From an uncultured Candidatus Peribacteria bacterium (GTDB lineage: Bacteria > Patescibacteriota > Gracilibacteria > Absconditabacterales > Absconditicoccaceae), in the NCBI GenBank assembly GCA_964387665.1, contig CAYLWY010000001.1:10075-74074 (forward strand): a stretch of DNA of 64,000 nt. Direction: 5' to 3'. The position numbers and the translations under genes were made by a program. The notes below the pieces were generated by a model. It ran no database searches. It had not been told where the DNA came from and saw nothing but the letters and a program-made list of their open reading frames with translations. Each line of letters starts with the position of its first letter. Positions within the stretch are counted from its first letter, which is position 1. Below are positions 26,537-56,763 of this stretch, piece after piece.

Positions 26537-26537
26537 G

Positions 26538-29165: not shown

Positions 29166-29172
29166 ATGTTAT

Positions 29173-31611: not shown

Positions 31612-33749
31612 TTCCGCTTCTTTGATAAAGCTCCCTTCTTACGTAAGGGAGGTCTGTTTTGTTTCCCAATTCGAGCTAGGTAAATTTGGCTCGGGTCTAT
31701 TTTATCTCCAAACATTTCGGTACGATCTCCAACTCCTTTCGTAGCTTTTTGAGTACTTCTGTATTTTATTCCTACTACGTTTTTATCGTCGTCATATACC
31801 CAATCTTTAAATATTACTGAATGACCAGAGCCATTCTTTCGCCAGATTTGCGCAATGTCGCCGGGTTTTGCGCTTTCGTGGGGTACTTCGTATCCGAGGC
31901 CATACTTCTGCAAAGCCGCAGTTGAAAGCGATTCTTTGTCCCCTTTCTTATAGTCTTTAGCTCCGTACCATATCTGTTTAAAGTCGGCTAGTTGCTTGTC
32001 GTCTAGGTCTTTTAGTAAGCCTGAATCTTGCATTGCTTTTAAAGATACGCCACAGGTATACCCGGAACAGTAAGTTCCTTCGGCTTGCTTGGCTAGTATC
32101 TTAGCGCTGTTGTGTTCTATGTCATATGGAGATCCACTTCCGGAAGGGTCCCAATTGTAACCGCCGCCTTCTAGGGAATCCGCTAATTGTAAAATAGCGG
32201 CGTTATAATCCGGCTCAGATTCGCGATTCACAAAATCAGGTATTGTAAATATTCCTTTTTGGGATTTTTGTACACCCCCGCCTTGTTGGAAAAATTTATT
32301 AGATAATCTATTAAAAGCCTGTCCATCTACTACTTTAATAGCGTCACGTACTTTAGCTCCTCTATCACCTAATATGGGAGTTATGCTATTATGGCCTACT
32401 TGGAGATACCCATCTTCGAACAACGAGCCAGAGGGGACCTTGTTTATATCAAAATCAGGGAAATGCCTATTGTAATTCTTTTTAGCTTGGGATGTAGTCC
32501 TCATCCTTAGTACCTTATTGATAAGCCCTTCGGGCATTTGATCTTTATAGACCTTTACATAGTAAGGATTTTCTCCTCCATATCTAGGTCCTAGCCAAGT
32601 AGGGTCATTTGAATAATATAGAATATCTTTGTTGGTACCTTTAACTAATTCTTCATGCCCACCTGACCTTCTACCTCTATTAAAAACATTGTTAGGGGCT
32701 ACTGTAGTGCCCATATACTTAGCCACATCGTAGGGATCATCTGGGTTTAATCCAGCCGAAGCTATGTTCTGCCTTATTATAGGATCTCGCATTAAATCAG
32801 GGTTAACGTCTACTACTCTATATAAAGGCTTAGTGTTATATTGTTGATCTAGCCATTTATCAAAACCTGCGGGATTATCAGGTATAGATCCCACTAACCC
32901 TTGGCTTTGTAATTTTTTAGCTAAGGCATGGGCTTCTTGTACGTCCGCCGACGTCGCTCCATCAGAAGTCCTTCTTACTATCCGAGCCCAATCGTCAGAG
33001 GGATCAGGTGCGCTTTTGAATTTAATAGGGAACCCACTTGCGGCTACGTTGTGATCTAGCGCCCATTGCATCCCTGGGCTATTACTAGGACTTGTAGGTA
33101 TTTTTTTAGCTAAATCTTTTATTTTACGCGCCGCTAACGACTTGCCTATACCCCTTAGTCCCGCCCCCACGATAGCTGGATCTAGCATGTCTAGGGCAAA
33201 ACCAGGCACGCCACCTACTCCAGTAACTTCTGACATGGTACGCTGACCTCCAGGATAAGTAGTTCCTTGGCCATACAGGGGATTAAATAAATCATAAGGA
33301 CGGCCTTTAAGCGCTTCGTAGCCTTCCGCCAATAATGAGTTACCTATTTGAAAAGGATCAAGAGGTAATAAATCAGTAGGGCTTTCTATCTTTCCGGAAC
33401 CTCTTTTAAGTTTGTCTTCTAGTACCATTCGGGCAGGGCCAGCAAGCTCCGATCCCCAAGGATTTGTTTTTAGACCTTCTAGCGCTTTGTTAAAGTCGCC
33501 GCCGTAATTCTCTTTAGCCCAATGTACTAGCTGTGGTTCCCAAGCTGCGCGTTGATCGTCGGTGAGTGTTGTACCCCCATGTTGCTTCTTTACAGGTACG
33601 ACTTTCTGATATACGTCAGGGTGTGCGTCCTTGAGGTAGGCTAGTGCTGTATGCCGGGCTTTTGTCTTGGACATGCCCTGGGATACGTAGTAAGGAATTA
33701 ACTCAGTATTTAAGTATTCCTTAAGATGTGCTACTCGACTATCTGCCAT
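31608..33749 (-). CDS. internal virion protein (713 aa) with C-terminal NlpC/P60- or CHAP-like cysteine peptidase domain
   Basis: The candidate Cys/His catalytic pair is EGTYCSGYTCG (Cys about aa 561) ... NGSGHSVIFKDW. Confidence 0.7.
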   Translation of the reverse strand: MADSRVAHLKEYLNTELIPYYVSQGMSKTKARHTALAYLKDAHPDVYQKVVPVKKQHGGTTLTDDQRAAWEPQLVHWAKENYGGDFNKALEGLKTNPWGSELAGPARMVLEDKLKRGSGKIESPTDLLPLDPFQIGNSLLAEGYEALKGRPYDLFNPLYGQGTTYPGGQRTMSEVTGVGGVPGFALDMLDPAIVGAGLRGIGKSLAARKIKDLAKKIPTSPSNSPGMQWALDHNVAASGFPIKFKSAPDPSDDWARIVRRTSDGATSADVQEAHALAKKLQSQGLVGSIPDNPAGFDKWLDQQYNTKPLYRVVDVNPDLMRDPIIRQNIASAGLNPDDPYDVAKYMGTTVAPNNVFNRGRRSGGHEELVKGTNKDILYYSNDPTWLGPRYGGENPYYVKVYKDQMPEGLINKVLRMRTTSQAKKNYNRHFPDFDINKVPSGSLFEDGYLQVGHNSITPILGDRGAKVRDAIKVVDGQAFNRLSNKFFQQGGGVQKSQKGIFTIPDFVNRESEPDYNAAILQLADSLEGGGYNWDPSGSGSPYDIEHNSAKILAKQAEGTYCSGYTCGVSLKAMQDSGLLKDLDDKQLADFKQIWYGAKDYKKGDKESLSTAALQKYGLGYEVPHESAKPGDIAQIWRKNGSGHSVIFKDWVYDDDKNVVGIKYRSTQKATKGVGDRTEMFGDKIDPSQIYLARIGKQNRPPLRKKGALSKKRK

Positions 33750-34765
33750 TTGTTTCCAAATTTAGGTGGCGCAGGTGGGGTTCCGTATTTTCTTAGTACG
33801 AATTTATCTTTACCAAACGTTCCGAATTGGAACTCTTCGGGCATCTGCTCCTCCATTTCCCCCTCGCCGCCAATCGTTGAACCCATCCTTCCAGATTCCA
33901 TATTCTTCTGGTCCTGGAGGCTTATTAACTCCATGAGGTAGGGTACTCTCGTTTCTAGATTATCTGTATCGGTTGCGAGGTTTAATATATCATTACTATC
34001 CCCAACAGTCTTTATCTTATTCCGTAGTGTCTTGGCCGCAGCCGCAAAAGTAAGTTTCCCCTTTTTAGGGAGGAAATCTCCTAACAACATCTCCTCGGTA
34101 TCGTAGTCGGTATGTTCGTCGTAGTGTGACATCCCATAACCAATGACTTTATCTTTAACGTCTTTCACGTTAAACTTCATGTTTTTGTCATCAGAAAATA
34201 CATACGAACCCTCTGGTAGTATGTCGGTAACTTTTTCATCCGACATATTCGAGTGCTTCTTCTTTGCCTTGACATTGGGGAGTGTATTGTCGGGGAATAA
34301 AACGACTTCCCCATACTCTGTTTGGGCCATTACATCTCCGGGGGTTTCCCCACCGAACTGGGCATAATACCCTAAATCTTGTGATACTTTTTTATTTTCG
34401 TGTTGTTGCTTTTCGTATAGTTGCCGCAGGTTGTCATATGCACTTGCGTTTCGGGCTGTCGTAAAACCCGCCATTCCCGCTCCTATAAGAGCTCCGGGTA
34501 TGCCTCCTACTGCGGCCCCCTGTAAAGCCCCCGCTCCAATACCCATTGCTACGTTTGGTCTAAATCCAGGCGCATTAGCCCCACTCATGGCTAGTTGAGA
34601 AAGCGGTGCCATAAAAGACCCCGCCGATTTAGTTTCGTCATTCGCGATTTTCCAATACTTTGCCCAACTGTTTTCCTCTTCCTCTACATCTGGGTCGTAT
34701 GTATAATCGTCGTAATTCTCCTCTATTTGAGGTGTGCCAAATTGATATTTAAATAACGGAAGCAT
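33731..34765 (-). CDS. virion protein (344 aa) with glycine-zipper hydrophobic segment
   Basis: The segment is GANAPGFRPNVAMGIGAGALQGAAVGGIPGALIGAGMAGF, with an acidic N terminus. Confidence 0.7.
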   Translation of the reverse strand: MLPLFKYQFGTPQIEENYDDYTYDPDVEEEENSWAKYWKIANDETKSAGSFMAPLSQLAMSGANAPGFRPNVAMGIGAGALQGAAVGGIPGALIGAGMAGFTTARNASAYDNLRQLYEKQQHENKKVSQDLGYYAQFGGETPGDVMAQTEYGEVVLFPDNTLPNVKAKKKHSNMSDEKVTDILPEGSYVFSDDKNMKFNVKDVKDKVIGYGMSHYDEHTDYDTEEMLLGDFLPKKGKLTFAAAAKTLRNKIKTVGDSNDILNLATDTDNLETRVPYLMELISLQDQKNMESGRMGSTIGGEGEMEEQMPEEFQFGTFGKDKFVLRKYGTPPAPPKFGNKWQIVE

Positions 34766-35085
34766 ATTACGGTAATTGTTACTACGATTAGTGGGAATAC
34801 TAAATCGACGTTTTGTAGTAATTGGTAAACGTCGGATTTTTCAAATGAGTAATTGTCGTACATCGGTCGCCCGTAGATGTGGATAAAAACGTTATTCTCT
34901 AAATACGTAAGTGGACAACCGTTGTACAAAAATACAACTGCCACCCACACATATAACGATATATAAAGTCTCAATAAAGCCCGAATTGGCCTAAATCTCC
35001 AGGTAGAGAATACTAGGACAATACCCCATATAAGAAGATAATGCAGTATTGTTACAATTAATTTAGCAGTATCAAAACACATCAT
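34723..35085 (-). CDS. small multi-pass membrane protein (120 aa)
   Basis: It has three to four hydrophobic segments and the motif NGCPLTYLE. It overlaps both neighbours slightly. Confidence 0.55.
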   Translation of the reverse strand: MMCFDTAKLIVTILHYLLIWGIVLVFSTWRFRPIRALLRLYISLYVWVAVVFLYNGCPLTYLENNVFIHIYGRPMYDNYSFEKSDVYQLLQNVDLVFPLIVVTITVICFRYLNINLAHLK

Positions 35086-38000
35086 CCTCTGTTTCTGCTA
35101 TTGTAATAATCCCACGGACTACTAGCTTAACATCCTCAAAGGTACTACTATGTAGCGAATAAACCAAATAATTATCTACTAATGTCTGATTTGTTATATC
35201 TAAAGATAAATTTTGTTTATTTGGAGATTTCGGTCCAATAGCGCATAAACGATCAAACATTACATCATCTGAACTTATTAGTTTATCTTTTAAATCAGAG
35301 AATGTCCATCTTGGGAGGGAGTACTTCAAATCAACTATGTCGTCATTTTGTGTACTGTTTTCTACAATTGACTTCTCGTCTGTGTAAGAAAAGTCAAGCA
35401 TGCCCGTATTTTGGTGACGGTTGAAGGCCATTACCTTATCAAAAGTACGGCGAACCCCATGTACGTACATCCCATCCCCAACCCAACGGCTGGCTTCTGT
35501 ATCAAGTATCGTCGAGTGATATCTAAACGGTCTAGGGTCCGTAGCTACTACTTCTAACACAATTGGATGTTGGGTATCGTAAAACTTGCTAAAACTACCC
35601 ACAACATTGTGCTCCCACATAGCTCTTTGGTCGAAAGAGTATAGAGTAAAACGATTCCACGCATACCAATTAGGCGTATAGTAATGGAAGCTAATCCAAC
35701 TTTTCGACTCAAACGAGTATGAGGCGGTGAATGATTTGTTACAGAAGTATCTAGGATCGCCGGCGTAGACGCGTTCGTTGTCTTCGTTTAAGAAATACCT
35801 GCCATCGGGTGATAAGGTAAGTTTAGTTGGGTCGTATGCCTCATAGTCTATCTTAGTCACGAGTATCCTATTGAGCTCGTTGTCTATTCCTATCGAATAC
35901 CCAACTCCGTAACGCGTCTTTTTGTCTACGAGAGCAAATCCCGGAAACTGGTCTACCAAGCGTAGATTAAGGTTTTCTCGCATAAAATGCTTCAGCCCCA
36001 AATCCGAAATAGGAACAGAGGATTCTCCATTAAAGAAGTTTACTTTCCTCGCTTCTCTATCTACTGATATATGTCCAAACTTAGAATTAACAGATGCATT
36101 GGGGTCTTTAGTTCCTGCGTTACCTTCAACGACGCCGCCGTAAAGAGCATCCGCTTGTCTCATGAATGAACCTGTCCCTAAGTAAATCGAACCATCACCA
36201 CGTAAAGCTAACTCCTCATGATGAGTGTTTAGGTTCCACATATTATCTGTCGTTTGGACAAACATCTTATTTCCAATTACAAAAATATCTTGTATTGCTC
36301 CGGTGTCGAAAGGTAACTCCAGGTAATTGTTTATGTGGAAATTCCTCCAAGCATTAGTGGTTGACCCTACTACTTGTTTATTTGAGTATACAATTTTATT
36401 AGTCTCCTCTCCTACACAAGGCCTAGTATCATACGAAGATGTAACCGAAAATCCTTGATCTATATCATTGACAAGTGAATAATCGTAGTTATATCGTGCG
36501 TAGTTATCCCTGAAGCCGTAGACATTTTCTTCTTCCGGAGCCCCTTGTGCATCGTTTTTACATTGATATATACTTAAGATTCTGTTAATATTAGTACATG
36601 TAAATAAAACAAATACCAAAATAATAAAAAAGGCCAAGAATAGAGCTACACGTACTCCGAATAGGAATATATCTGTATAATCGGCTTCGATCTTAAACCC
36701 GTCTTTAATAAACCATAGTAATGGTACTATAAACGCCGCGGCTCGGATTAAAATCTTTGCAAGCAGTTTCCATTGTGGAATACGTTCGTGCCTAGCCGCA
36801 AAATGATTCAAGAACGCGTTGTCGAAGTGCTCTTCGGTGAGTGATGAATCTAGGGGTTTATTTTTAAGCCTAGGATACGCTAACTCAAAATTGTCAGGAT
36901 CTCCAAGTTCTCTAAACCAGGTATTAGAATCCGCCTCTACCCAAGTTACGATTAACGTTTTCAGAGTTCTTGGATAGTACATATCCCGGATAGAGTCTCT
37001 AAAAAACGCCTCATACCAACCAGGACATGGAGTATCTCGACTAACGCTCGCGTGCCAAGGCCGTAGATTGGCTAAGTTTTTAGGATCTCCACCGTTGCAA
37101 GAAATAGGTAATTTACTACAATCCCCAAAACACATAAATCGTTTCAATGCGCTGGATACTCTAGGTTCTATGTTGTCTCCTACTTTATTCGAGATATACG
37201 ACTTGCGAACCAATGTCCAAGGACCTATATAAGCATCTCCAGAAGAGCCTGTTATTCTCCCACGTAGCGCATCTCCCATGGTACCTTCAGTACCTGTTGG
37301 AATCATTCTGAGACCTTCTACGCTTCCGTATTGGTCGCTTCTGTGTTGAATTAAAGATCCATACCACGCGCCGGCTCTAGGTACCACGCATTCGTGACAT
37401 ACTCCATCTCCTACAAAAGAAGCATCGTCTGTACGGTATTCGGAGTCATTATCCAACAAATCTGCGCGTGTAACTTGATTTAGTGGATTTACGTAATTAC
37501 CCTCAAACTGTACGAACACCGAAGATTCCCTATATCTATTCATTAGTGGCGCAGGTACCGTAACCCGTTCGCCGTTCTCTAATCGTTCGAAAGTAAATCC
37601 CTCATTTGCATCTACAATACTGTCTGCTTCTGCGTACGTAATACCAGCAACGCACTTTTGATGTGGGCCTTTTACCGGTATGTAATGATTTAGGTTAATA
37701 GATTGTCGCGTACCTCGTTGGTCAACTTGTTGTTGGAAGAACGTATCTGGTTCTTCACCCTCGGCATATTGCCCATGACGAAATCCCCAACCCATTAGTT
37801 GCAAATCAAAAACAGCACGATTACTTCCGCCTAGGAATGGCCTGTCAAACGAAGTATCGGGGGAATGGAAATTATATATTGGGAAGTCGTTTGGTTTCCC
37901 TTTCTTTTCGTTATCTATTGGACGGCACGTTCCGGTGGTTCCGCCAGGTGGTGGGCAGGTGGGGCAACTCTCTGGGCACTCTGCGTCGGTGGTACAAGGA

Positions 38001-41000
38001 ATAGCCTCACACTCCGGCTTAGGTACACAAACGTAAATATTACGACACAAGAGATCCCCCATAACTGTGCTCGTTGCGCAGACACCGAAAGGATCTAATG
38101 GATTGTCATAGTTACAGAAACAATTCTCTCCAGAACAATCCGCTGCTGTGCTACAAGGTGAACCACCACATGGGTCGTAACACTCGCAACCCTCTGGACA
38201 ATCCTGTAACGTACAGGTTGAGTTGCTACATACTGTATCAGATACGGGTAAACAATCACAATCCTCGCCGCATCCTACCGCCGGGTCGCAGGGGTTGCCT
38301 GCGCAACTAGGTGGTTCTGCTGGTTGGCAATACCTTATACCTGGATCTGGAAGCGCGCCGTTACATTCGCACCCTGGATTACAGTCCGTATTATAAAAAC
38401 AGTCTGATACACCGCAATCGGCTGTATTCTCAATTTCGTTGTATATATTTCTATCTACATACTCTAAGGAGTTAACGGCGTGCTTGGGGAACACGTAATC
38501 CTTCCCAAATACATTACCCAAAAACGTATGCGTAAACATTCCACTTGCAATAACCCGCTTATTTGTTGGGTCACGTTTGACATATGTAATCGTGAATGGG
38601 TTATTTGGGCAAAGAGGTTTTGGTGGATTTTCCGGTAACTTTATACCTTTATAAGTTAACCATATAGGGCGAATAAACGTATCTTGTAATTCGTAACCAG
38701 AGGCATCTGATGCGTTTACAACTCCGTCGTGATAAGATACGAAATGAGGTTCTATTTCTGAGTTAGGAGTTCGGTGTAACCTAACGGGGGTTCCCGCTAA
38801 TTCACCAAATAGGAAATTACCATTGCAATCTTTAGTCAATGGATATATTTCCGAAGACTGCCAAACCCCTAATTTCCCCTCCGCTACAATTGGATAAAGT
38901 TTATCAACAACCTCACAACCGTCATCACTATATACTCTAATCTTGGCGTATTTCAATTTTGGGTTAGAAGACTCGGCCGCCTCTGCAATTGCCGAAAGTG
39001 GAACTGCTTCGTTAGGAACTACGGTTCCATGGTATTTGTAATACTTCCTTCGTTTACGTCTTTCCGTTACATGGAACAACAAATTCTGAATAGCCTGTAA
39101 AAACGTCTCAGGCTGTTTGAAACATGTAAATCTACAATATCCGTCTTCGTTACATTCGTAACAAGAGTCGAAAGCTAATGGGTCTGAGCAACTTCCTGAG
39201 CCGCCGCATTTCCCAGCACTACCCGAACAAGAAGAGCATGACGACATTGATGGAATCGACGGGATTGTAGACGCCGCCATAGCAGAAGCCTCTAGTTCCC
39301 AATCATTTATAGTCTGCGACGACCCGTCTGGGTATATCGCAATAATTTGGGGGAAGTACCCAATGTTGTAATTCGCAGCTAGTATTTCTATTAAATCCGC
39401 ACTAGCGTTTACTAGGGGGTAGTTGGCGGTTGTGAAGTCTCCTTGTGTACCAGAACCCGTGCCTTCGATCTGTGCAACTGTAGTGGAGGGGTCGAATTCG
39501 ATTCCGATAACCTGTACAGTATCCATTCCGGCAGGTCCGTAAGCGCTATAAAAGTCATCAACAATACTAGAAGTATGTTGGGTAAAGCAAGGGCCGCACC
39601 AAGTAGTAAAAGCCTTAATATAAACAGTTTTACCCGCATCGTTTAGGTCTTTAATGTTATAAAGATTTCCATCGATATCCTCAACTGTGATATCGTTTAG
39701 AAGTGATTGCAGTGGTGTAGTGGTTTGGCTAGGTGGGACATAGCCTTCCGGAAGATCTCCGTCTTGTAAACCCGCGGTGAACCCAGACCCAGCACTTACG
39801 CAATTAAAATACGGTTCTTCTGTACATTGGCATCCATCGGGGCATGGGAAGTTGCGGCAATTATAAGCCGAACAGTTTAGACCTGGATCGTTTCCTCCAC
39901 CTTCGTCGCCTTGATCGGGACCGTCATTGTGTAGGTAGTCTTCTAGGGATCCTATAATATCATTAAATCCTTGTCCGAACCCACCTCCAAAAGTAGATAG
40001 CGTATCTTGTAATCTATTGCAGCACTCTTCTGACAAACCTACGCGTAGGTCGTAATGTGATATGTTTAACGGATTTAGCGTAGTAAGCGTGCCGTCTATT
40101 GTCAGTAACTCCGTAAGACACCCGCAAATGTCCGCAGTCATTTCATTTGGATTATGATCCAATATATCTGCTACTGATTCCGGGATATCTACTGGCTCTG
40201 TTTCTTCTACATATTCTGGTGGCTTGTAAGAAACTTTTTTATTAGGTGGCTTGAATAGCGCACTGGTATCTTTTGCAATGTGCCACTCATCATCAAACGG
40301 ATTATCAGGGTTGGGGAATCGATCCGCCGTGTTGTATACATCCCATTTGGGTTTTACACAAGATGCGCAATTCTCGTCGTTTTCGTCTGGAATTAATTCA
40401 GCCTCTTCTGGAGTTGGTCGTCTTCCTGGGATTATAAAATCCGCAGAGGAAGTACCGTCACAATAATTCCACCTAATACCTAATAGATAATTCTCATCTC
40501 TACGCATCGTTTTAACCAGATGCGCATCCTCTGCGGGTACTAATCCAACCGCATAAGTAACCTCGATCTCGTTAGCTAGGTGTTGATAGTCTAGATTGGT
40601 CTCCCCTAATACGTTATATAGAATTAATCTACCATCGTGTTGTACTAAATTTCGACCACGTATGTAGGAGGGGTTTTTAACTAAAACCGCCTCGAAGGGT
40701 AGGCTGTCCCCTTTTTGGCCATTATAAACTACTGATACTTTTCCGGAAGCGTAGTTTCGCTTGAAGATTACCTCGGGAGGGAATGTTTGCCCACCAATAG
40801 TTTTGATAACCGCAATATTAACCTGCTCGTACTCGTCGTCTAAGTCTGAGATATCTATACGAATAGAGCGGCGGGTTGGTTCCCCGGCGACAAAGTCTTG
40901 TTCGGCTACATATACAGGTTGGGATATTTTGAACCAATTAGTTTGGTTACCATCTTTATCCTCTAGCTGTGCTGCAAATTGATAAGCACCATTCGCCAAT

Positions 41001-41554
41001 GTTCCGCCGCCTTCTTGAATAACAGGCGCTATAATAGGTCCGCAAATACAGCGGAACAATTCCATATCGGCCAGTGTGTAATTACAGCACTCGACCTCTA
41101 GGTTTATATATCGATAAGTGTAATCGTTAGACCAATACGCGTGTAATTCGTTACAGGGTTGCTCTACTTTTAGCTCAATATTAATAAGCTCGTCGTCAAA
41201 ACAGAGTTTACCGTCAGGTAACTTGTCGTCATTTACAACGGTTCTATACGTCTTTGTTCTTTCGTCGATTATCCCGATTTCGGAGATATTCCCCTTCGCA
41301 CTATATAGAAATAGGACAAACCAATCACGCTCTTCAGCATACGCTAAACCACGAATCTCATAGCCCTCTGGTATGAGAGTATGAATCATATTGGACGCTT
41401 CGCTAGCTACTCCAAATCCACTTTCAGTGTCAGTACTATTGACAAGGCCCCAACCCTCTCGGTACGTACCTTTGGGTTGCATAGAAAACGGCGCGTCGGA
41501 ATTCATGCCATTCTCAAAAGTGGAAATGATTATCTTACTATCTTGATCAGCCAT
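35072..41554 (-). CDS. giant cysteine-rich virion protein (2160 aa) with embedded TlpA/thioredoxin-like domain
   Basis: The 6.5-kb ORF is uninterrupted. The WCGPC redoxin domain spans aa about 620-755. Cys-rich arrays lie at about aa 565-600, 770-815 and 1040-1210. Two hydrophobic helices lie at about aa 1590-1650. Confidence 0.85.
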   Translation of the reverse strand: MADQDSKIIISTFENGMNSDAPFSMQPKGTYREGWGLVNSTDTESGFGVASEASNMIHTLIPEGYEIRGLAYAEERDWFVLFLYSAKGNISEIGIIDERTKTYRTVVNDDKLPDGKLCFDDELINIELKVEQPCNELHAYWSNDYTYRYINLEVECCNYTLADMELFRCICGPIIAPVIQEGGGTLANGAYQFAAQLEDKDGNQTNWFKISQPVYVAEQDFVAGEPTRRSIRIDISDLDDEYEQVNIAVIKTIGGQTFPPEVIFKRNYASGKVSVVYNGQKGDSLPFEAVLVKNPSYIRGRNLVQHDGRLILYNVLGETNLDYQHLANEIEVTYAVGLVPAEDAHLVKTMRRDENYLLGIRWNYCDGTSSADFIIPGRRPTPEEAELIPDENDENCASCVKPKWDVYNTADRFPNPDNPFDDEWHIAKDTSALFKPPNKKVSYKPPEYVEETEPVDIPESVADILDHNPNEMTADICGCLTELLTIDGTLTTLNPLNISHYDLRVGLSEECCNRLQDTLSTFGGGFGQGFNDIIGSLEDYLHNDGPDQGDEGGGNDPGLNCSAYNCRNFPCPDGCQCTEEPYFNCVSAGSGFTAGLQDGDLPEGYVPPSQTTTPLQSLLNDITVEDIDGNLYNIKDLNDAGKTVYIKAFTTWCGPCFTQHTSSIVDDFYSAYGPAGMDTVQVIGIEFDPSTTVAQIEGTGSGTQGDFTTANYPLVNASADLIEILAANYNIGYFPQIIAIYPDGSSQTINDWELEASAMAASTIPSIPSMSSCSSCSGSAGKCGGSGSCSDPLAFDSCYECNEDGYCRFTCFKQPETFLQAIQNLLFHVTERRKRRKYYKYHGTVVPNEAVPLSAIAEAAESSNPKLKYAKIRVYSDDGCEVVDKLYPIVAEGKLGVWQSSEIYPLTKDCNGNFLFGELAGTPVRLHRTPNSEIEPHFVSYHDGVVNASDASGYELQDTFIRPIWLTYKGIKLPENPPKPLCPNNPFTITYVKRDPTNKRVIASGMFTHTFLGNVFGKDYVFPKHAVNSLEYVDRNIYNEIENTADCGVSDCFYNTDCNPGCECNGALPDPGIRYCQPAEPPSCAGNPCDPAVGCGEDCDCLPVSDTVCSNSTCTLQDCPEGCECYDPCGGSPCSTAADCSGENCFCNYDNPLDPFGVCATSTVMGDLLCRNIYVCVPKPECEAIPCTTDAECPESCPTCPPPGGTTGTCRPIDNEKKGKPNDFPIYNFHSPDTSFDRPFLGGSNRAVFDLQLMGWGFRHGQYAEGEEPDTFFQQQVDQRGTRQSINLNHYIPVKGPHQKCVAGITYAEADSIVDANEGFTFERLENGERVTVPAPLMNRYRESSVFVQFEGNYVNPLNQVTRADLLDNDSEYRTDDASFVGDGVCHECVVPRAGAWYGSLIQHRSDQYGSVEGLRMIPTGTEGTMGDALRGRITGSSGDAYIGPWTLVRKSYISNKVGDNIEPRVSSALKRFMCFGDCSKLPISCNGGDPKNLANLRPWHASVSRDTPCPGWYEAFFRDSIRDMYYPRTLKTLIVTWVEADSNTWFRELGDPDNFELAYPRLKNKPLDSSLTEEHFDNAFLNHFAARHERIPQWKLLAKILIRAAAFIVPLLWFIKDGFKIEADYTDIFLFGVRVALFLAFFIILVFVLFTCTNINRILSIYQCKNDAQGAPEEENVYGFRDNYARYNYDYSLVNDIDQGFSVTSSYDTRPCVGEETNKIVYSNKQVVGSTTNAWRNFHINNYLELPFDTGAIQDIFVIGNKMFVQTTDNMWNLNTHHEELALRGDGSIYLGTGSFMRQADALYGGVVEGNAGTKDPNASVNSKFGHISVDREARKVNFFNGESSVPISDLGLKHFMRENLNLRLVDQFPGFALVDKKTRYGVGYSIGIDNELNRILVTKIDYEAYDPTKLTLSPDGRYFLNEDNERVYAGDPRYFCNKSFTASYSFESKSWISFHYYTPNWYAWNRFTLYSFDQRAMWEHNVVGSFSKFYDTQHPIVLEVVATDPRPFRYHSTILDTEASRWVGDGMYVHGVRRTFDKVMAFNRHQNTGMLDFSYTDEKSIVENSTQNDDIVDLKYSLPRWTFSDLKDKLISSDDVMFDRLCAIGPKSPNKQNLSLDITNQTLVDNYLVYSLHSSTFEDVKLVVRGIITIAETEDDVF
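39290..39697 (-). other. TlpA/ResA-like thiol-disulfide oxidoreductase domain (WCGPC at 39587-39601)
   Basis: The domain reads GKTVYIKAFTTWCGPCFTQHTS ... VQVIGIEFD ... NYPLVNASADLIEILAANYNIGYFPQIIAIYPDGS. This matches the redoxin-family pattern GK-x-hhhhFWA-WC-x-PC ... vigvs-D ... P-t-fhhD-dG. Confidence 0.75.
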
Positions 41555-42561
41555 TACTTCTTAGTTAATCTCGACATGGTAGTGTCGTATGGATCTCTTT
41601 GTTTTCGTCCCATTTGTTGGAAATGGTCGTAATACGGATACACTCTTGAAGTTACGTTTTCCATAAACGCCCACCAACTTTGGAAATCTGGAGTTATTAA
41701 GGCTTCCCTCGCCCTGGCCATAGCCGTTTCTTTCTGTTGCATCGCATACTGCGAAGCTCTTAGATTTGATGGGTCCTTACCCGTGCGGAACTCCCTATAC
41801 AGCATACGCTCTTCGATATACCAACTTACGGCCTCAAACGCGTATGGGTGATTCGGTAGTAGTAAATAACCATCCTCACTCGTACGTCTAGCGAAATAGG
41901 ACAATAATATCTGTCCCTCTTTAACATTAAGCCTAAGTATCGGTGGTTCGTGCGAGAACTCGTATGGGACATCGGCCATTAGTTTTTGGTCTAAATTCAA
42001 ACAGCCCTTGATGTAGAAATCAGCATTGAAAAAATTGTGCTGCGCTGCTCGTAGGATAACGAACTCGGGGTGGTAGGTCGATCTTGGTAGCCCATCATTG
42101 ACCCACCCCCCTGTTCTAACAAAGTGTGACATGTACCCATATTTAAGCTCGGGGTGGTTCATTTCCCACATTCTATCCACGTCAATGATTACTTCGGGAG
42201 ACGCACACGAGCAGTCTGCTTGTTTACACCTGGGGCAGTCCATTGTTATAGTGAACTCGCAACCCGAACCATCCAAAGCTTTTTGGGTCCATTCTACAAT
42301 TTCATAGCGACGAGCTTTCCTTGTTACTTCGGGGCGCAGCGCTACTTGGGTTATTTTAGCAAGATCATCGGGTAATCTTACTATATGCCCCCGCACGTCA
42401 AGGAGGGCTACTTTATGAATTAAGTTATCTTCAAACTGTAGCTTAAGCGCTACGTCATTTGCCCATTTTAATATTGTACTCTTCTCTAACCGTCCTCGAT
42501 AGTCGGTTAAGTCAAGATACTCGTCAATTGCCGTTGTTATTGGAACGAAATTTACTTTCAT
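41554..42561 (-). CDS. virion-associated hypothetical protein (335 aa)
   Basis: Track ORF carrying the Cys cluster MDCPRCKQADCSC. It is coupled to the downstream gene. Confidence 0.65.
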   Translation of the reverse strand: MKVNFVPITTAIDEYLDLTDYRGRLEKSTILKWANDVALKLQFEDNLIHKVALLDVRGHIVRLPDDLAKITQVALRPEVTRKARRYEIVEWTQKALDGSGCEFTITMDCPRCKQADCSCASPEVIIDVDRMWEMNHPELKYGYMSHFVRTGGWVNDGLPRSTYHPEFVILRAAQHNFFNADFYIKGCLNLDQKLMADVPYEFSHEPPILRLNVKEGQILLSYFARRTSEDGYLLLPNHPYAFEAVSWYIEERMLYREFRTGKDPSNLRASQYAMQQKETAMARAREALITPDFQSWWAFMENVTSRVYPYYDHFQQMGRKQRDPYDTTMSRLTKK

Positions 42562-42563
42562 AA

Positions 42564-43091
42564 TCAGTCTATATGGGCTCTATAATCCGGAACTGCTGGA
42601 TTTTCGGAGCAGGCTTTTATGTGTTTGGCTAACCCTAAATTACCAACCCATTCCTTGTTTTTGGTACCTCTAGTTGGGATGAATTTATAAGGCGTTAAGA
42701 TCTTTGGCGTAAGGCCATTTTTTCGCATTACGATTTTAAACAACCGCCCACTGGAATGCATATTGCTATGGCGTACCAATTTTCTAAGTTTTTTCGAAGA
42801 TACCCAATCTACGGGACGTCTTTGACCAACCATTTCTTTAACATAAAACTCCAGCTTAGTGTATGGCATTTGAAATCGCCACAACTCTGTCACCATAGCT
42901 TTATAAATCTCGGTATGGACGCGCTTTAAAATGTCAGAAAATTCAGAGTACGAGTAGGCCTCACCTCTTCCTTTTTTGTACATGCGCCATAAATACTCAC
43001 TTTGTATTACTAAATAACCGTTACGATTTGCTTTGTATCTATGTTTACTGTTTACTGCTCGTGTTTTGTACTGCTGCATCGGGTATATCAT
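42564..43091 (-). CDS. hypothetical basic protein (175 aa)
   Basis: Track ORF with an uncertain start (it overlaps the upstream ORF by 47 nt). Confidence 0.6.
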   Translation of the reverse strand: MIYPMQQYKTRAVNSKHRYKANRNGYLVIQSEYLWRMYKKGRGEAYSYSEFSDILKRVHTEIYKAMVTELWRFQMPYTKLEFYVKEMVGQRRPVDWVSSKKLRKLVRHSNMHSSGRLFKIVMRKNGLTPKILTPYKFIPTRGTKNKEWVGNLGLAKHIKACSENPAVPDYRAHID

Positions 43092-43809
43092 TATTTATGA
43101 GATCCGCCCCGGCATACGCACCTCGTATACCTTGAAGTGCCTGGAAAGCGTACTCAAATACTTGTGCTTGTAATTCTGGTTCTATATGAAATTCTTGGTC
43201 TAAAATATTGCATAATGGTTTTACTTCTTCACCACATGTAGGAAAAGCTAAAACCTCTAGTGGGTCTTTAAATACTGCCGTAACTGCGACCCCTCTTAAT
43301 TCCGGATACCGTTCGTTATTTGCGTATATGTATAAATGGGTATCCATGTCTACGTCTTTTAACGTATAGTAAAGGCCTTTAGATTGGGCCGCAATTCTGG
43401 AATTTACTTTATAGTGCATGTTATTCCAGCGTACGTAATCAAACTCTTTTACTTCGCCGCCACAGTTAATGCACTCAGACCCTAATACAGATACGCTAAG
43501 TGGTAGCCCATCTAGCATACTAGGTAATTTGTGCTTACTTTTCATAAAATAACATCCAGATGGCGGTGCGAATGGAGTCTCGACTACATCTACTGCCATA
43601 AGTTCTATACAAGGTAACGTCTGTATAATACCTTCGTCAATGTTCAGAGATGATCGACGAGTTTTTTCTTGAAATAGTACCCGCTTGTGGTACATATTCA
43701 AATAATAGTAAATCAGTTTAGGAGGATGTAATATCGTTTGCGATGGTCGCCCGGTACGATCCTCAAAAAAATGAAGAAAAGAATCTACTGCGTCTCGTAT
43801 GGTGTTCAT
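43045..43809 (-). CDS. hypothetical protein (254 aa)
   Basis: Track ORF, co-oriented and tightly packed. Confidence 0.65.
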   Translation of the reverse strand: MNTIRDAVDSFLHFFEDRTGRPSQTILHPPKLIYYYLNMYHKRVLFQEKTRRSSLNIDEGIIQTLPCIELMAVDVVETPFAPPSGCYFMKSKHKLPSMLDGLPLSVSVLGSECINCGGEVKEFDYVRWNNMHYKVNSRIAAQSKGLYYTLKDVDMDTHLYIYANNERYPELRGVAVTAVFKDPLEVLAFPTCGEEVKPLCNILDQEFHIEPELQAQVFEYAFQALQGIRGAYAGADLINNDIPDAAVQNTSSKQ

Positions 43810-45673: not shown

Positions 45674-46852
45674 TTAACAAGTTCCTCCAGCGCATCCGCC
45701 ACCCCCGCCAGAAGAACCGCCACTTCCTAACGAATTAGGATACGTGCCTCCTGCTGATTGAAGTGCGGCTGTGTTACCATCGCAACATGCCTGGATTTGA
45801 CCCTGCAAGATAGTAACTTTTTCTGATAACTCCTTAAGTTTTTGTTGTAAATCGCAAATAATATCACCTTGCCTTTTAAAAGCTTCGTGTACGGTAACTT
45901 CAATTAAGTTATCTCCGCATTCATCGGAGCACTCTCGATATTGAATCTTATTTAACTTATCAAGTATTTCTAAAATATCACACAGCTCAGATGCGTGTAC
46001 TGCAATAATTGCTTTTATATCTGTATTTGGGTACTGAATCTTGTCACAACCTAATAGTTGGAGATTTCTCAGTTGGTCCAATCCTTGCTTTGTATCGCAC
46101 ACTTGCGCAGCGACAAGTGCGTTAAATGTCTCTTGCGTAAGTAGTCCGACCCCCTGTGCATAATCTTTTATAGTAAAAGCCTGCCCGGCAGCTTGCGACA
46201 CTGCGGAAGGTACTACCAACGTGTGTACCATATCAATGGTACCGTTTGGGGAATTTACACGTACTTGAAAATCGGCTACAATTGGAAAGCGATCGTTCTC
46301 TACATGAATAGACGCAGCCGGTTGGGAAGATGTTGCAATGACTGTTTTTCCATTTTTCATCTTACCAGAAACCGTAACCGACATTCGACCTAATGAATAC
46401 CCGGCGGGTAATCCAGAAATACCCGAACTCATGTCATATCCAAAAGAACTGCCGACAGTCGCCGGTTCTACGAAATATTGATAACCCCTGCCTAATAGAG
46501 ATACGCCGTCAACTGACATAGAATTACCCCCGAGGCAGTATAACGGTCCGGAATGAATAATATCGGCAGAAGTTAGGGTACATATCTTATCTATTAAGAT
46601 CTGAACCGCTTCTGGAACCGGAACTACCGGATCACACGTATTACAACTATTTGTATAAAGGCAATGTAGGGATACTTTTTGGTCCAGCAAAAAACGTAAA
46701 CGCTCTATGAGGGCCATAGTTACTTGGCTATAACGAAATCCGTTATATACATTAACGATTTCCATATCAGGGCCGGTATAGATGATGCACTCGTCTCCGT
46801 GCTCTTCCATACATCCACAACCTATACAATCTTTATTTAAACGATTAGCCAT
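45674..46852 (-). CDS. Cys-rich virion protein (392 aa) with Gly-rich C terminus
   Basis: The N terminus carries DCIGCGCMEEHGDEC and the C terminus reads SGGSSGGGGGCAGGTC. Confidence 0.7.
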   Translation of the reverse strand: MANRLNKDCIGCGCMEEHGDECIIYTGPDMEIVNVYNGFRYSQVTMALIERLRFLLDQKVSLHCLYTNSCNTCDPVVPVPEAVQILIDKICTLTSADIIHSGPLYCLGGNSMSVDGVSLLGRGYQYFVEPATVGSSFGYDMSSGISGLPAGYSLGRMSVTVSGKMKNGKTVIATSSQPAASIHVENDRFPIVADFQVRVNSPNGTIDMVHTLVVPSAVSQAAGQAFTIKDYAQGVGLLTQETFNALVAAQVCDTKQGLDQLRNLQLLGCDKIQYPNTDIKAIIAVHASELCDILEILDKLNKIQYRECSDECGDNLIEVTVHEAFKRQGDIICDLQQKLKELSEKVTILQGQIQACCDGNTAALQSAGGTYPNSLGSGGSSGGGGGCAGGTC

Positions 46853-48450
46853 GTTCCTTCGGTTCTTAAATCATTTGATGGGCCTATACCTACAAGTCTA
46901 CTAACGTGCCCAGCCGAGGCCAAAATAACTGGATCTAGTGAAGGTACGTCTCTGACGGTATCATCTATGTACTCACCTATTGCGGAGTAGATATTGACCG
47001 CGTCCGCGCCTACGTTTTTAATCGTAATAGACTGCCCTTCTAAAGATGATGGGAGTACTACCGTTACGGGTACGCCTACTCCAGGTTCTACCATTACTAA
47101 ATTGTGGCGCTTACTGCTAAACGAAAGTGTGTTTAGGTTTGTATCAGCAGCCACGTAGAATATTAAAAATTGCGGAACCTCATGTGATGTTTCTAGTGCC
47201 TGAAGGGCTTGTTTTACAGTTACGTTATCTGGAATAGTAGTTCCTGTAAACGTCCCGAGATTTGCCGCATTTGCCGCGACACCACTCAGCGTAATAAGGT
47301 TCGTTACGTTAGTAGCTGAAGCCTTTGTCTCCAAAGAAGTTTCTAGCGCTTGAAGGGCTTGTTTTTCGGTCTGATTGTCTGGAATAGTAGATCCCGTAAA
47401 TGTTCCCAAATTGGTAGCGTTAGCCGCTACTCCACTTAACGTAATGAGGTTGGTTACTCTAGTAGTTTGGGTTGAAAGGTCGCCGTCTAGTTCGTTTATG
47501 GCAGCCTGCACCGTAATAGACGCAATAGTACCGGCTGGTACATTCGTTACATTACTAGCTGTGTAGTCGCCGTTTGCCGCCACTACTGCCCCAGTTCTGC
47601 CGAAGACTGATGATACTGGGCTTGGAGTACCTTGAACTCCTTGCGGTCCTTGAGAACCCTCCACACCTTGCGGTCCTTGGGCTCCAGTTGCACCCTGAAC
47701 GCCTTGCGATCCCGCCGGTCCCTGAGCGCCGGCGATTCCTTGGGTTCCTTGTGGACCAGTTGCGCCTTGAGTTCCTTGGGAACCTGTAGAACCTTGAGGG
47801 CCTTGTGGGCCGGAAAGTCCTTGAGTTCCTTGAGGGCCTTGTATTCCTTGTGGACCCGTAGAACCTTGCGCACCGGTCGTACCTTGAGGTCCCTGAGCGC
47901 CTGTAGTTCCTTGTGGCCCTTGCGAACCGGCGTCTCCTTGTGGGCCCTGTGCTCCCGTATCACCTTGGGTTCCTTGTGCACCTTGGGGTCCGACAACTCC
48001 TTGAGTTCCTTGTGGACCTTGCGCGCCGGCGATAACCCACGGATCGTTAATAGATCCAGATCCTGGTATTGGATTTCCTATTGAATCTACTAAAGATATA
48101 CAGGAACGAATATCGCAACACGTTTGAGTTTCCTCAATCTGGCTTACCCAAACGTTGTCTGATAAATCATCCCCGGAAGTAGATGTGCTTACTGTCGCGG
48201 TCATCTCAAACGATGTCGGACAGTCGCCTTCATAAATAAGGCAAATTTCTATAGTCTCTTCTTGGAGTGGGATTAACGTTCCGACAGTCCAAGTAAGTAC
48301 ACTGAACGAACCCGTGCTTGGGGTAGTGCTATCTATTACGAATCCCGACGGAATGGTTAATACCATTTCTACATCGTCCGCATTGGTAGTTGGGTGGGTA
48401 TTGCGTACCGTTCTAGTAAAGCAAAATATCTCACCGGGAGTAAGTATCAT
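46837..48450 (-). CDS. collagen-like fibre protein (537 aa)
   Basis: There are 45 uninterrupted G-X-Y triplets (aa 142-276), followed by two 50-aa tandem modules. Confidence 0.85.
   Translation of the reverse strand: MILTPGEIFCFTRTVRNTHPTTNADDVEMVLTIPSGFVIDSTTPSTGSFSVLTWTVGTLIPLQEETIEICLIYEGDCPTSFEMTATVSTSTSGDDLSDNVWVSQIEETQTCCDIRSCISLVDSIGNPIPGSGSINDPWVIAGAQGPQGTQGVVGPQGAQGTQGDTGAQGPQGDAGSQGPQGTTGAQGPQGTTGAQGSTGPQGIQGPQGTQGLSGPQGPQGSTGSQGTQGATGPQGTQGIAGAQGPAGSQGVQGATGAQGPQGVEGSQGPQGVQGTPSPVSSVFGRTGAVVAANGDYTASNVTNVPAGTIASITVQAAINELDGDLSTQTTRVTNLITLSGVAANATNLGTFTGSTIPDNQTEKQALQALETSLETKASATNVTNLITLSGVAANAANLGTFTGTTIPDNVTVKQALQALETSHEVPQFLIFYVAADTNLNTLSFSSKRHNLVMVEPGVGVPVTVVLPSSLEGQSITIKNVGADAVNIYSAIGEYIDDTVRDVPSLDPVILASAGHVSRLVGIGPSNDLRTEGTWLIV
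47186..47465 (-). repeat. tandem 150-nt (50-aa) duplication within the fibre gene
   Basis: T(R/N)VTNLITLSGVAANA(T/A)NLGTFTG(S/T)TIPDN.T.KQALQALETS occurs twice. The DNA units start near 47191 and 47341. Confidence 0.8.
47623..48027 (-). repeat. collagen G-X-Y coding repeat (45 triplets)
   Basis: The run GAQGPQGTQGVVGPQ...GPQGVQGTP was read directly from the translation. It generates spurious ORFs in other frames and on the other strand. Confidence 0.9.
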
Positions 48451-49682
48451 ATTTCTTTAATTCCGCACCACCGCTCGTCGTACCATCCTTTCAAGGCGAT
48501 TAGGTGGGCTCCGATTATTGGGATCTTGGGATCGTCCCACCAGTATTCCACAATACGAGCTTTTTGAAATCTACCCGTATATTGTGGTCGTATAAACCGC
48601 GCCTGCTTTTCGTTAGTATAATATTCGAACGACAGTAAGTTAAAAAACTTTTTATGTGTAGGGTCGGCGAATGCGCCATCTCCCTTTACGCTAGGTACCT
48701 CTAATAAGAGGAAGCCACCTGGAGCTAATACCCGGAACGCCTCGTTGAAGAAGTGAATTGGGTCTTCTAAATGTTCCAATAAATGGTACGCCCTAATAAC
48801 GCCTATACTATCGTTGGCAAAAGGCCATGGCCCTTCTAAATCGACGATAATATCCGCGTCTAGTAAATCTACTGATTTATAACCTACGGGACAATTAAAC
48901 CGCCCGCCTAAATCAATAGCCGCTAACCCCTCGTCTTTGGCCCATCGTAAATACATCTGCTCTGCGTATTTAACGTAGTTCCGATCGACCTGTTCTTGAA
49001 CTTCTCGGTTCTTATTGTCCGCTGAGGTGTTATCACCATGGAGTCTATAATAATACAAACACTTATCAATGTGTTTGAAACCCCTCTCGCCGTACTTTAT
49101 GTAAAACCGGCAACAGAGATCGTGGTCATCCCCCACTTCTAGAGGCATATATTCCAACGTCTTATATGCCGAAGCCCGATACGCGCGTACGTGATTTGGA
49201 GCCCACCAAATATTTCTAAGATAATGAGCCGTAGCTGGAAACGCTACGTTTTCTTCGAACCCCTCTTCGGTTACACGATGTGTCCAACCAAAAGCTTTAC
49301 CGTATGTTAAAAAAGACCCGTCATTACGGACCTCTATTGAATTGGAATATACATACTGAACCGCTTCATCTTCGAAGGCTTTCGAAACTTCTTCTAAGGC
49401 CGTCGGTAAAAGCTCATCATCATAATCTAATTCTACTAAAATATCTCCTTTTGCATAATTGCAGCAAGCCCACTTTAAGGCTCCGATATTTCCGTTATCT
49501 TTTGGGTCTGCCGTTATCACCCTTGCCCATGGTACGATTTCTTTAACCCAAGAGGCCCGGGCTTGCCCGTTTACTAGTAAAATCCATTCGACCTCTCCTT
49601 TGTAGGTCTGTTTAGAAATACTGTCTGCTGCGAGGCGTAAGAATACATTTTCTTTGTGAATTGGTGTGAATATGGTTATCAT
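48447..49682 (-). CDS. bifunctional GT2 glycosyltransferase / class I SAM methyltransferase fusion (411 aa)
   Basis: The N-terminal GT-A signature is ITIFTPIHKEN...SKQTY...EWILLVNG...VELDYDDELLP...GDDHDLCCRF. The C-terminal methyltransferase signature is AIDLGGR...HLLEHLEDPIHFFNEAFRVLAPGGFLLLEVP. Confidence 0.75.
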   Translation of the reverse strand: MITIFTPIHKENVFLRLAADSISKQTYKGEVEWILLVNGQARASWVKEIVPWARVITADPKDNGNIGALKWACCNYAKGDILVELDYDDELLPTALEEVSKAFEDEAVQYVYSNSIEVRNDGSFLTYGKAFGWTHRVTEEGFEENVAFPATAHYLRNIWWAPNHVRAYRASAYKTLEYMPLEVGDDHDLCCRFYIKYGERGFKHIDKCLYYYRLHGDNTSADNKNREVQEQVDRNYVKYAEQMYLRWAKDEGLAAIDLGGRFNCPVGYKSVDLLDADIIVDLEGPWPFANDSIGVIRAYHLLEHLEDPIHFFNEAFRVLAPGGFLLLEVPSVKGDGAFADPTHKKFFNLLSFEYYTNEKQARFIRPQYTGRFQKARIVEYWWDDPKIPIIGAHLIALKGWYDERWCGIKEI

Positions 49683-51046: not shown

Positions 51047-51505
51047 TTAATTAATTTGTATATTAAGCGCAGCCTCTGGGCACAATCCGGTACACGGATC
51101 ACAAGAGTCGTGGCACTCTATTGGACATGGGTTAGCGAAGCATATGTACACATTTCCAGTAGCACTTAGTATGTTACACGGACATGTTACCTTATACTTA
51201 ATTACTGGATATTCGTTGAATTCGTACCAGTCTAATGTAGTTCCTGTCAATTCGCCGGCTGCCGACACCGCGACACCGGTAAAGGCGTCCGTGTCATAGG
51301 ATACCAATGAGTAGACAGGTACGCCGCAATCGCAAGCCGTTAGGTCGTTGCCTACGGTTAGGTCGATTGTGAATGCCTCCCCGCAAGGATCAGGACCGCT
51401 ATCGCAAGGTAGGCGGTAGCTGCTCACCACCAAACAGTCATCACAGGGTTGTGATTCTGGGGTTGGGGGGATATTGTATTGTAAATTTCCGCAATTACAG
51501 GGCAT
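51047..51505 (-). CDS. Cys-rich virion protein (152 aa)
   Basis: It starts MPCNCGN and ends NPCPIECHDSCDPCTGLCPE. Confidence 0.65.
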   Translation of the reverse strand: MPCNCGNLQYNIPPTPESQPCDDCLVVSSYRLPCDSGPDPCGEAFTIDLTVGNDLTACDCGVPVYSLVSYDTDAFTGVAVSAAGELTGTTLDWYEFNEYPVIKYKVTCPCNILSATGNVYICFANPCPIECHDSCDPCTGLCPEAALNIQIN

Positions 51506-51508
51506 GGG

Positions 51509-55285: not shown

Positions 55286-55288
55286 AGT

Positions 55289-56753: not shown

Positions 56754-56763
56754 ACATTAGTTA

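Follow-up and report, generated by a model that had tools for sequence, protein, structure and literature searches.

A thioredoxin-fold domain in the tail-tip muzzle of an environmental crAss-like phage points to a possible role of redox chemistry in host attachment or entry

We analysed a 64,000-nucleotide stretch of DNA (hereafter the window; positions 10,075 to 74,074 of contig CAYLWY010000001.1), deposited within the assembly of an uncultured Candidatus Peribacteria bacterium (GCA_964387665.1). The window is the DNA of an environmental crAss-like phage, and one of its open reading frames (ORFs), of 2160 amino acids (aa), encodes the muzzle of this phage, a protein of the tail tip. Residues 613-760 of the muzzle make up a true thioredoxin-fold domain of the TlpA/ResA type, including the central insertion by which that group is known, an identity confirmed far beyond chance, and the active site of the domain is intact, of the thioredoxin type and, judging from the aligned sequences, under purifying selection. 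This suggests a possible part for redox chemistry in host attachment or entry. Enzyme family and structural protein have each been described before, but we know of no earlier case of their fusion, or of the redox activity which it implies at the tail tip. An initial sequence-only reading of the window had stated that no such phage system is described, which agrees with our searches: literature on Crassvirales or phage tails in combination with a thioredoxin-like domain returned unrelated cases only (a ribonucleotide reductase fusion in phiCbK and the processivity of T7 polymerase), and BFVD held only small stand-alone viral thioredoxins, nucleoredoxins and peroxidases. To our knowledge, the enzymes of phage tails are hydrolases and lyases which act on polysaccharide or peptidoglycan.

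The sequence-only reading had placed a TlpA/thioredoxin-like domain with a WCGPC motif at 39290-39697, which corresponds exactly to aa 620-755, with WCGPC at aa 652-656, and this identification fits Pfam, PDB profile, structure prediction and Foldseek results alike. When searched in isolation, the domain matched Pfam Redoxin with 27.1 bits (gathering cutoff 26.6, E 4e-6), although the score was only 22.4 when the whole 2160-aa protein was scanned; the isolated domain also came slightly under the respective cutoffs of AhpC-TSA and Thioredoxin. Among PDB sequences, the single domain sequence matched thiol-disulfide oxidoreductases from Bacteroides and Bacillus, ResA and TlpA, while a 13-sequence profile aligned over the full length of the domain with ResA (E 5e-10) and with a tryparedoxin-like thioredoxin (E 3e-11). 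Structure prediction with AlphaFold2 (AF2), a check which that reading had proposed, was performed on an alignment of 13 copies and returned a thioredoxin-like fold with a predicted local distance difference test score (pLDDT) of 93.2 and a predicted template modelling score of 0.87. In this model the CxxC cysteines (C44 and C47 in model numbering) lie at the junction between a strand (34-40) and a helix (45-53). Foldseek against the PDB recovered ResA, DsbF, DsbE, TlpA and Bacteroides TlpA-like proteins with probability 1.0, template modelling (TM) scores of 0.67-0.75 and root mean square deviations of 2.2-3 A, and glutathione peroxidases as well as the Etrx proteins of the pneumococcal surface are also among its matches. 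Pro735 occupies the place expected of the cis-proline before a strand, aligns with the corresponding proline of ResA and of 4fyu, and is invariant.

The assignment to a named family is looser than the assignment to a fold. The phage domain scored 27 against the NCBIfam model for ResA (NF002854, cutoff 170) and 18.4 against that for TlpA (NF047696, cutoff 230), no match to DsbE (TIGR00385) was reported in the same scan, and the cellular relatives described below are likewise under the cutoffs for ResA, TlpA and DsbE; 'TlpA-like' is therefore valid at the level of fold or superfamily only. Two neighbouring assignments were rejected. A peroxiredoxin would carry PxxxTxxC and a Sco copper chaperone CxxxC together with a His, where the phage domain has WCxPC, and in both cases the ranking of the matches is also contrary, as those of ResA/TlpA type stand higher by profile and by Foldseek. 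A context of cytochrome c or copper-centre maturation, or of CcdA/DsbD, was not found among the window ORFs of at least 100 aa scanned with Pfam (all but about four of them).

The carrier, which had been called a virion protein on first reading, can be sharpened to a Crassvirales muzzle. Its reading frame is intact, and it matches PF25731 (crAss_MUZ) with 59 bits against a cutoff of 27 (E 3e-16) and PHROG 15100 with an E of 7e-46; with a profile of 33 homologues, hhalign paired muzzle residues 1681-2088 with residues 995-1331 of gp44 of crAss001 at a probability of 98.2%. The Ring1 and Ring2 genes stand immediately upstream, and the order Ring2, Ring1, muzzle and then large genes for cargo or RNA polymerase (RNAP)-like proteins is the same in 15 related loci. 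Comparison of 71 homologues delimited three conserved blocks (aa 1-412, 874-1037 and 1214-2150) separated by two variable inserts, and the thioredoxin-like domain is located in the first of these, between aa 412 and 874. In crAss001 the muzzle gp44 is a hexamer which closes the tail tip, its distal 'crass' and IG2 domains are exposed on the surface, prone to insertions and proposed to contact the cell and to start the opening of the gate, and opening requires a rearrangement of the muzzle (Bayfield et al. 2023, PMC10172136). Since the N- and C-terminal blocks map to the two ends of gp44, the insert falls in the distal IG2/crass region. Cultured phages gave only distant matches to the C-terminal part of the muzzle (Flavobacterium and Leptolyngbya phages) and neither a close cultured relative nor a host, and no exact copy of the window muzzle protein is on record. 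Elsewhere in the protein, aa 1597-1662 (36569..36766, reverse strand) form a strongly hydrophobic, transmembrane-like hairpin, with a Kyte-Doolittle mean of up to 2.9 over 19 residues, which occurs at the same position in many environmental muzzle homologues and is absent from crAss001 gp44; it could be an element that inserts into a membrane during ejection.

Only the 15 closest muzzle homologues, with 87-34% overall identity, carry the domain, and more distant muzzles are without it. Among the phage copies, identity to the window domain drops to 26%. Across 13 phage sequences the W-C-x-x-C motif, the presumed cis-proline and the Glu of the IExD motif are among only 13 invariant columns of 150, and the CxxC itself occurs as CGPC, CSPC, CGGC, CQPC or CEPC. 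Relatives without the domain have other Cys arrays at the same insertion site, and muzzle homologue P0029 has a MAM adhesion domain there (aa 424-559), so that the site behaves as a display position for swappable modules. In a further homologue, P0058, DUF5122 beta-propeller repeats are found farther downstream. A local hmmsearch detected no second thioredoxin-like domain in the window or in 19 related loci. Thioredoxin-bearing muzzles were absent from the GenBank phage collection (50,697 phage records) and from IMG/VR, where a scan with the muzzle alignment gave 12 loci, zero of them with the domain, a scan with the single protein gave nothing, and a scan with the domain alignment gave a small stand-alone phage thioredoxin only.

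The dense Cys arrays which had been noted on both flanks of the domain are present, with 6 Cys in aa 561-585 and 8 Cys in aa 773-811 (Table 1). Before the core the consensus reads DPGLxCxxYxCRxxxCPxGCxC...C, and after it a Gly/Ser-rich stretch with Cys leads into DSCYECxxDGYCRxxCYK. In 11 thioredoxin-bearing homologues, the upstream knot has five invariant Cys and one that at least 90% of them retain; for both flanks together there are 12 invariant Cys and one at or above 90%. This total of 13 is an odd number, and hence at least one of these cysteines is unpaired or bonded to another chain. The thioredoxin core itself contains exactly two Cys in all 15 domain-bearing homologues, both of them in the CxxC. 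An AF2 model of aa 548-838 has the core folded and the Cys knots at moderate confidence (pLDDT 55-73), and as pLDDT is below 50 at aa ~589-617 and ~762-788, the domain appears, in this model, to hang on two flexible linkers.

Table 1 Coordinates of the muzzle, its domains and motifs, and further structural genes of the window.
Feature	Coordinates	Strand	Basis
Muzzle (tail-tip) protein gene, 2160 aa, 74 Cys	35072..41554	-	Pfam crAss_MUZ, PHROG 15100, hhalign to gp44
N-terminal block, conserved, aa 1-412 (counterpart of ring-joining domain, first propeller blades and IG1)	40319..41554	-	Homologue BLAST blocks; Pfam model positions 5-322; gp44 domain map (PMC10172136)
Upstream six-Cys knot, aa 561-585 (CSAYNCRNFPCPDGCQCTEEPYFNC)	39800..39874	-	Conservation in 11 thioredoxin-bearing homologues; AF2 pLDDT about 65-73
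Linker 1, aa 589-617, G/S/P-rich, predicted flexible	39704..39790	-	pLDDT <50 in AF2 model of aa 548-838
TlpA/ResA-type thioredoxin-fold domain, aa 613-760	39275..39718	-	Hidden Markov model envelope, Pfam Redoxin, PDB profile matches, AF2, Foldseek
Active-site motif W652-C653-G-P-C656, N-terminus of helix alpha1	39587..39601	-	Conservation and AF2 model
Glu686, invariant, in the IExD motif that follows the second central strand; candidate acid of the active site, as in ResA-type enzymes	39497..39499	-	Inferred role
Pro735, presumed cis-proline (YFPQIIAI)	39350..39352	-	Invariant; directly precedes model strand 127-131
Linker 2, aa 762-788, S/G/P-rich, Cys-studded, predicted flexible	39191..39271	-	pLDDT <50 in AF2 model of aa 548-838
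Downstream array, 8 Cys, aa 773-811: G/S/C repeats, then DSCYECNEDGYCRFTC knot	39122..39238	-	Invariance of seven Cys across 11 homologues
Second variable insert, aa 1047-1210: 28 Cys, repeated C-x3-DC-x2-GC-x-C modules	37925..38416	-	Cys census
C-terminal block, conserved, aa 1214-2150; its final ~400 residues pair with the propeller and C-terminus of gp44	35105..37915	-	BLAST, hhalign
Tail ring protein 1 gene	41554..42561	-	Pfam CrAss_Ring_1, E 1.4e-21
Tail ring protein 2 gene	43045..43809	-	Pfam CrAss_Ring_2, E 6e-14
Crassvirus major capsid protein gene	60593..62149		Pfam Crass_capsid

The closest relatives of the domain outside phages belong to surface proteins of Bacteroidota which leave the cell by the type IX secretion system (T9SS). 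An exhaustive hidden Markov model (HMM) search with the domain profile covered 1.84 billion representative proteins and gave 7855 matches. Of the top 150, three were muzzle-sized proteins with an internal domain and 147 carried it at residues ~25-160, directly after the signal peptide in every one of the non-phage matches. The nearest cellular relatives share 36-47% identity with the phage domain at an HMM E of about 1e-36 (7e-36 to 2e-28 for the cellular matches listed), and in a survey with each prokaryotic species represented by one genome, relatives turned up in Saprospiraceae, Bacteroidales, Lentimicrobiaceae, Flavobacteriales and other Bacteroidota metagenome-assembled genomes (MAGs). 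The cellular architecture consists of a signal peptide, an N-terminal thioredoxin-like domain and a C-terminal T9SS sorting domain (for example L020-L024, L029, L030 and P0073-P0219); the sorting domain (Por_Secre_tail) was found in 37 of 50 cellular relatives, and others have SprB, PKD, HYR or CARDB repeats, such as commonly occur in adhesins and surface proteins. Phage and cellular domains have in common the motif DDGKxV..FFTTWCxPCW..YGP.G..IE.D..TT..L.G.G..T.G[DN]W..YP, and W, C, P, C, E, G, W and P do not vary in either the phage set or the 50 cellular relatives. About 1,400 clusters at 50% identity lie under an E of 1e-10 with the domain profile, a number which may include broader thioredoxin-like proteins.

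In a neighbour-joining tree without support values, the phage copies form one clade adjoining the bacterial ones. On this tree, the history of the domain is that of a single acquisition from a large Bacteroidota family of T9SS cargo followed by retention in the thioredoxin-bearing muzzle lineage, and, as far as the sequences tell, the phage captured the domain alone and not the T9SS-cargo architecture. The only characterised protein of this architecture that we found is HBP35 of Porphyromonas gingivalis, a T9SS-secreted surface protein with an N-terminal thioredoxin motif, which reduces insulin in a CxxC-dependent manner and complements an Escherichia coli dsbA mutant (PMC2907840). A variant of the domain with a degenerate site (WCLPS, WCPPS or WCAPS), in which the second Cys is lost, was seen in Flavobacteriales MAGs (L025-L028, for instance L026:2713-7983); its carriers are secreted proteins of up to 2130 aa with 40-99 Cys, a subtilase domain and MopE-type metal-binding repeats.

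We tentatively favour, at rather less than even confidence, the reading in which the domain acts on the host surface by thiol-disulfide exchange at adsorption or when ejection begins. Judging from its homologue gp44, the tail tip would display six copies, which could undergo thiol-disulfide exchange with a component of the host envelope during adsorption or early ejection. The reaction might be a disulfide reduction or an isomerisation, or Cys653 might form a mixed disulfide that covalently captures a host surface protein for a short time. Such a tail-tip enzyme would follow the logic of tail-borne depolymerases and lysins, with redox chemistry in their stead. We infer that a role at the host envelope during entry agrees better with the tail-tip location of the domain, and with its ancestry in surface proteins of the host phylum, than catalysis of virion disulfides does. 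Other points in its favour are the invariance of the presumed catalytic residues, the predicted flexible linkers and, as a precedent among T9SS surface proteins, the CxxC-dependent disulfide reductase activity of HBP35 (PMC2907840). That a tailed phage uses covalent thiol-disulfide chemistry for adsorption or ejection, whether on a host protein or on disulfide locks of its own muzzle, is conceivable, and we regard it as somewhat doubtful.

Several points weigh against host-surface action. The domain is placed on the outer surface by remote homology to gp44, its T9SS relatives in cells are functionally uncharacterised too, and the tree of the domain has no support values. The flanking cysteines are nearly as conserved as the active site, which fits action on the muzzle's own cysteines. 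Above all, a free virion has no electron donor and its CxxC would be oxidised in oxic water, so that only a single turnover, or a role as oxidant or isomerase, would be open to the domain; this lack of a donor is the main weakness of every catalytic model. A literature search for the sample accessions gave nothing on the habitat, oxic or anoxic.

Cysteine is abundant in several other proteins of the phage. The count of at least eight Cys-rich neighbours given by the sequence-only reading was roughly right, in that six window ORFs contain 4-10.6% Cys (45674..46852, 51047..51505, 51509..55285, 55289..56266, 56241..56753 and 56764..58293), whereas three further ones reach only 2-2.5%. Five of these ORFs form a hyper-Cys-rich cluster on the reverse strand (51047..58293), in which the protein encoded at 51509..55285 has 133 Cys in 1258 aa (10.6%) and no Pfam match; its N-terminal ~500 aa consist of C-x3-DC-x2-GC-x-C-x2-G-x-C repeats, the type of module found in muzzle aa 1047-1210. 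Giant ORFs with 117-167 Cys also occur in the related loci L005, L010-L012, L014, L015 and L017. The proteins encoded directly downstream of the muzzle (16322..34765, reverse strand, and the equivalents in L001-L019), presumed to be ejected cargo or RNAP-like, contain 0-2 Cys in 344-3404 aa, and similarly Cys-free or Cys-poor proteins follow the muzzle in crAss001 (gp45-47) and at almost all related loci. The contrast between Cys-poor cargo and the Cys-rich tail or decoration proteins encoded upstream may reflect a constraint against disulfides in proteins threaded through the tail. It holds as a sharp rule among these phages, with a very high Cys content in the outer tail and decoration proteins and next to none in ejected cargo.

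A different task for the domain would be to fold its own surroundings, oxidising or isomerising the disulfides of the neighbouring muzzle Cys knots, and perhaps of other virion proteins, during or after assembly. Cys arrays with the 13 conserved residues described above flank the core in 15 of 15 domain-bearing homologues, several phage proteins have 4-10.6% Cys, the Flavobacteriales MAGs place a variant of the domain inside Cys-rich proteins of 1500-2100 aa, and the dsbA complementation by HBP35 (PMC2907840) points the same way; nevertheless, we consider this unlikely. At this muzzle site, relatives that lack the domain have Cys arrays of a comparable kind, and among the 19 muzzle loci compared, six phages without it encode giant ORFs (117-167 Cys, 7-10%) immediately upstream of the ring genes, whereas the thioredoxin-bearing locus L016 has no hyper-Cys-rich ORF within 10 kb. 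Homologues P0008 and P0013 keep the domain although they lack the 28-Cys array, most cellular family members have few Cys (5-11), and the Flavobacteriales variant has CxxS or no Cys. Among the scanned ORFs of the window, which is only a part of the phage genome, Pfam found no Erv-type oxidase, DsbA/B, VKOR, glutaredoxin or thioredoxin reductase, which leaves the domain without an Erv, DsbB or VKOR oxidant, and six copies fixed at the tail tip would be ill placed to serve capsid or fibre proteins. The presence of the domain thus does not track Cys-rich virion proteins, and a virion-wide disulfide role is not supported. The suggestion of the sequence-only reading that the domain is a virion-disulfide catalyst of the poxvirus kind is accordingly not supported, since relatives without it have equally or more Cys-rich virion proteins, no oxidase was found and its family consists of extracellular T9SS cargo, mostly with few Cys; a pathway like that of nucleocytoplasmic large DNA viruses (NCLDV) was rejected on the same lack of co-occurrence across loci and of an oxidase in the scanned ORFs. 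Because the Cys of the flanking knots are conserved together with the domain, a folding role, if there is one, could be limited to these adjacent knots.

The same cysteines could instead serve as a trigger, if the CxxC attacked tether disulfides of the muzzle itself, possibly between subunits, after receptor binding, and thereby unlocked the ejection gate. The flexible G/S/C linkers directly beside the domain and the odd count of conserved flanking Cys would suit such a device, the muzzle must rearrange in order to open, disulfides between subunits are present in crAss001 tail assemblies (PMC10172136), and there is a documented precedent in the Env protein of murine leukaemia virus (MLV), whose CXXC isomerises the SU-TM disulfide (PMC11575397, PMC9967133). 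However, relatives with similar Cys arrays and no domain must open without it, structural evidence for disulfide locks is absent for every muzzle, the disulfides reported in crAss001 being those of the tail barrel, of the portal vertex protein gp57 and of the fibre hubs, and the cellular relatives have no such partner cysteines, which makes this mechanism improbable in our view. We think it similarly improbable that the domain is a non-catalytic binding module, that is, an adhesin, a receptor-binding surface or a mimic of a host protein in which the CxxC is a structural disulfide. In favour of a binding module, the insertion site holds a MAM adhesion domain in the lineage of P0029, the cellular relatives form distal domains in adhesin-like T9SS proteins with SprB or PKD repeats, and the domain changes at least as quickly as the muzzle core (compared with P0014, it is 31% identical, and the core blocks are 48-49% identical). 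Thioredoxin-fold domains which have lost catalysis usually lose the CxxC and the cis-proline, as in the b domains of protein disulfide isomerase, and yet neither the phage copies nor the 50 cellular relatives show any change in W-C-x-x-C, the presumed cis-proline or the Glu. Protection against oxidation, with the domain acting like a peroxiredoxin or as a partner in methionine sulfoxide repair to guard the tail-tip proteins, is very improbable: there are weak Pfam matches to AhpC-TSA, and glutathione peroxidases and pneumococcal surface Etrx are among the Foldseek matches, but the motif is WCxPC instead of the peroxiredoxin PxxxTxxC, the free virion has neither a reductant nor a methionine sulfoxide reductase partner, and reductases of the ResA, DsbE and TlpA type are the best matches.

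Further genes of the window deserve mention. At 11676..16325 (forward strand) a 1549-aa ORF combines Hint/intein splicing domains and a LAGLIDADG homing endonuclease with a weak match to the insertion domain of B12-dependent ribonucleotide reductase, and is probably an intein-interrupted ribonucleotide reductase gene; its end coincides with a switch of strand and GC skew at ~16.3 kb. Between the capsid and tail genes, on the reverse strand, lie unusual genes for a collagen-triple-helix protein with a DUF11 domain (46837..48450), a fusion of glycosyltransferase-2 and methyltransferase (48447..49682) and a PAS-domain protein (49679..50278). The presumed cargo protein of 875 aa encoded at 26538..29165 (reverse strand) ends in a pesticin-type lysozyme domain (E 3e-28), where the gene at the equivalent position in relatives has Peptidase_M15_3 or PG_binding_1 domains, which suggests that ejected cell wall-degrading enzymes are swapped between phage lineages.

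If the domain is active, thiol-disulfide exchange would join the mechanisms of phage entry, and there would be a handle on how crAss-like phages engage the surfaces of Bacteroidota, for which receptors and ejection trigger are largely unknown. Action on the host surface, if true, would define a new class of tail-associated enzyme, while a lock within the muzzle would be the bacteriophage counterpart of the retroviral Env CXXC trigger. The analysis also brings to attention a large family of surface proteins exported by the T9SS, functionally uncharacterised, whose N-terminal domain is thioredoxin-like, and the phage copy may hint at the substrate of that family.

Compared with known systems, the phage domain has the fold, central insertion, WCxPC-type site, presumed cis-proline and nearby conserved Glu of ResA, TlpA, DsbE (CcmG) and DsbF, but differs from ResA, TlpA and DsbE in having neither membrane anchor nor signal peptide and in being internal to a phage structural protein. 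From the unnamed Bacteroidota T9SS family it differs in the same internal position, without signal peptide or sorting domain, and HBP35 resembles the cellular relatives in architecture alone and additionally binds hemin (PMC2907840). With crAss001 gp44 the muzzle has in common the conserved N- and C-terminal parts, the gene order and a variable middle that tolerates insertions; nevertheless, it has 2160 aa and 74 Cys against 1371 aa and 10 Cys, and the thioredoxin-fold domain, the three Cys arrays and the transmembrane-like hairpin are found in this muzzle and not in gp44. The E10R-A2.5L-G4L pathway of poxviruses and NCLDV is alike in that a disulfide-rich virus encodes a protein of the thioredoxin superfamily, but it employs an Erv-type sulfhydryl oxidase and soluble relays, whereas the phage domain is fixed at the tail tip and of extracellular descent. 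Finally, the SU subunit of gamma-retroviral Env, as in MLV, is likewise an entry protein with a CXXC of its own and thiol-disulfide exchange at entry (PMC11575397, PMC9967133), although there the motif is bare, without a thioredoxin fold, in an enveloped eukaryotic virus and without homology, which makes it a functional analogue only.

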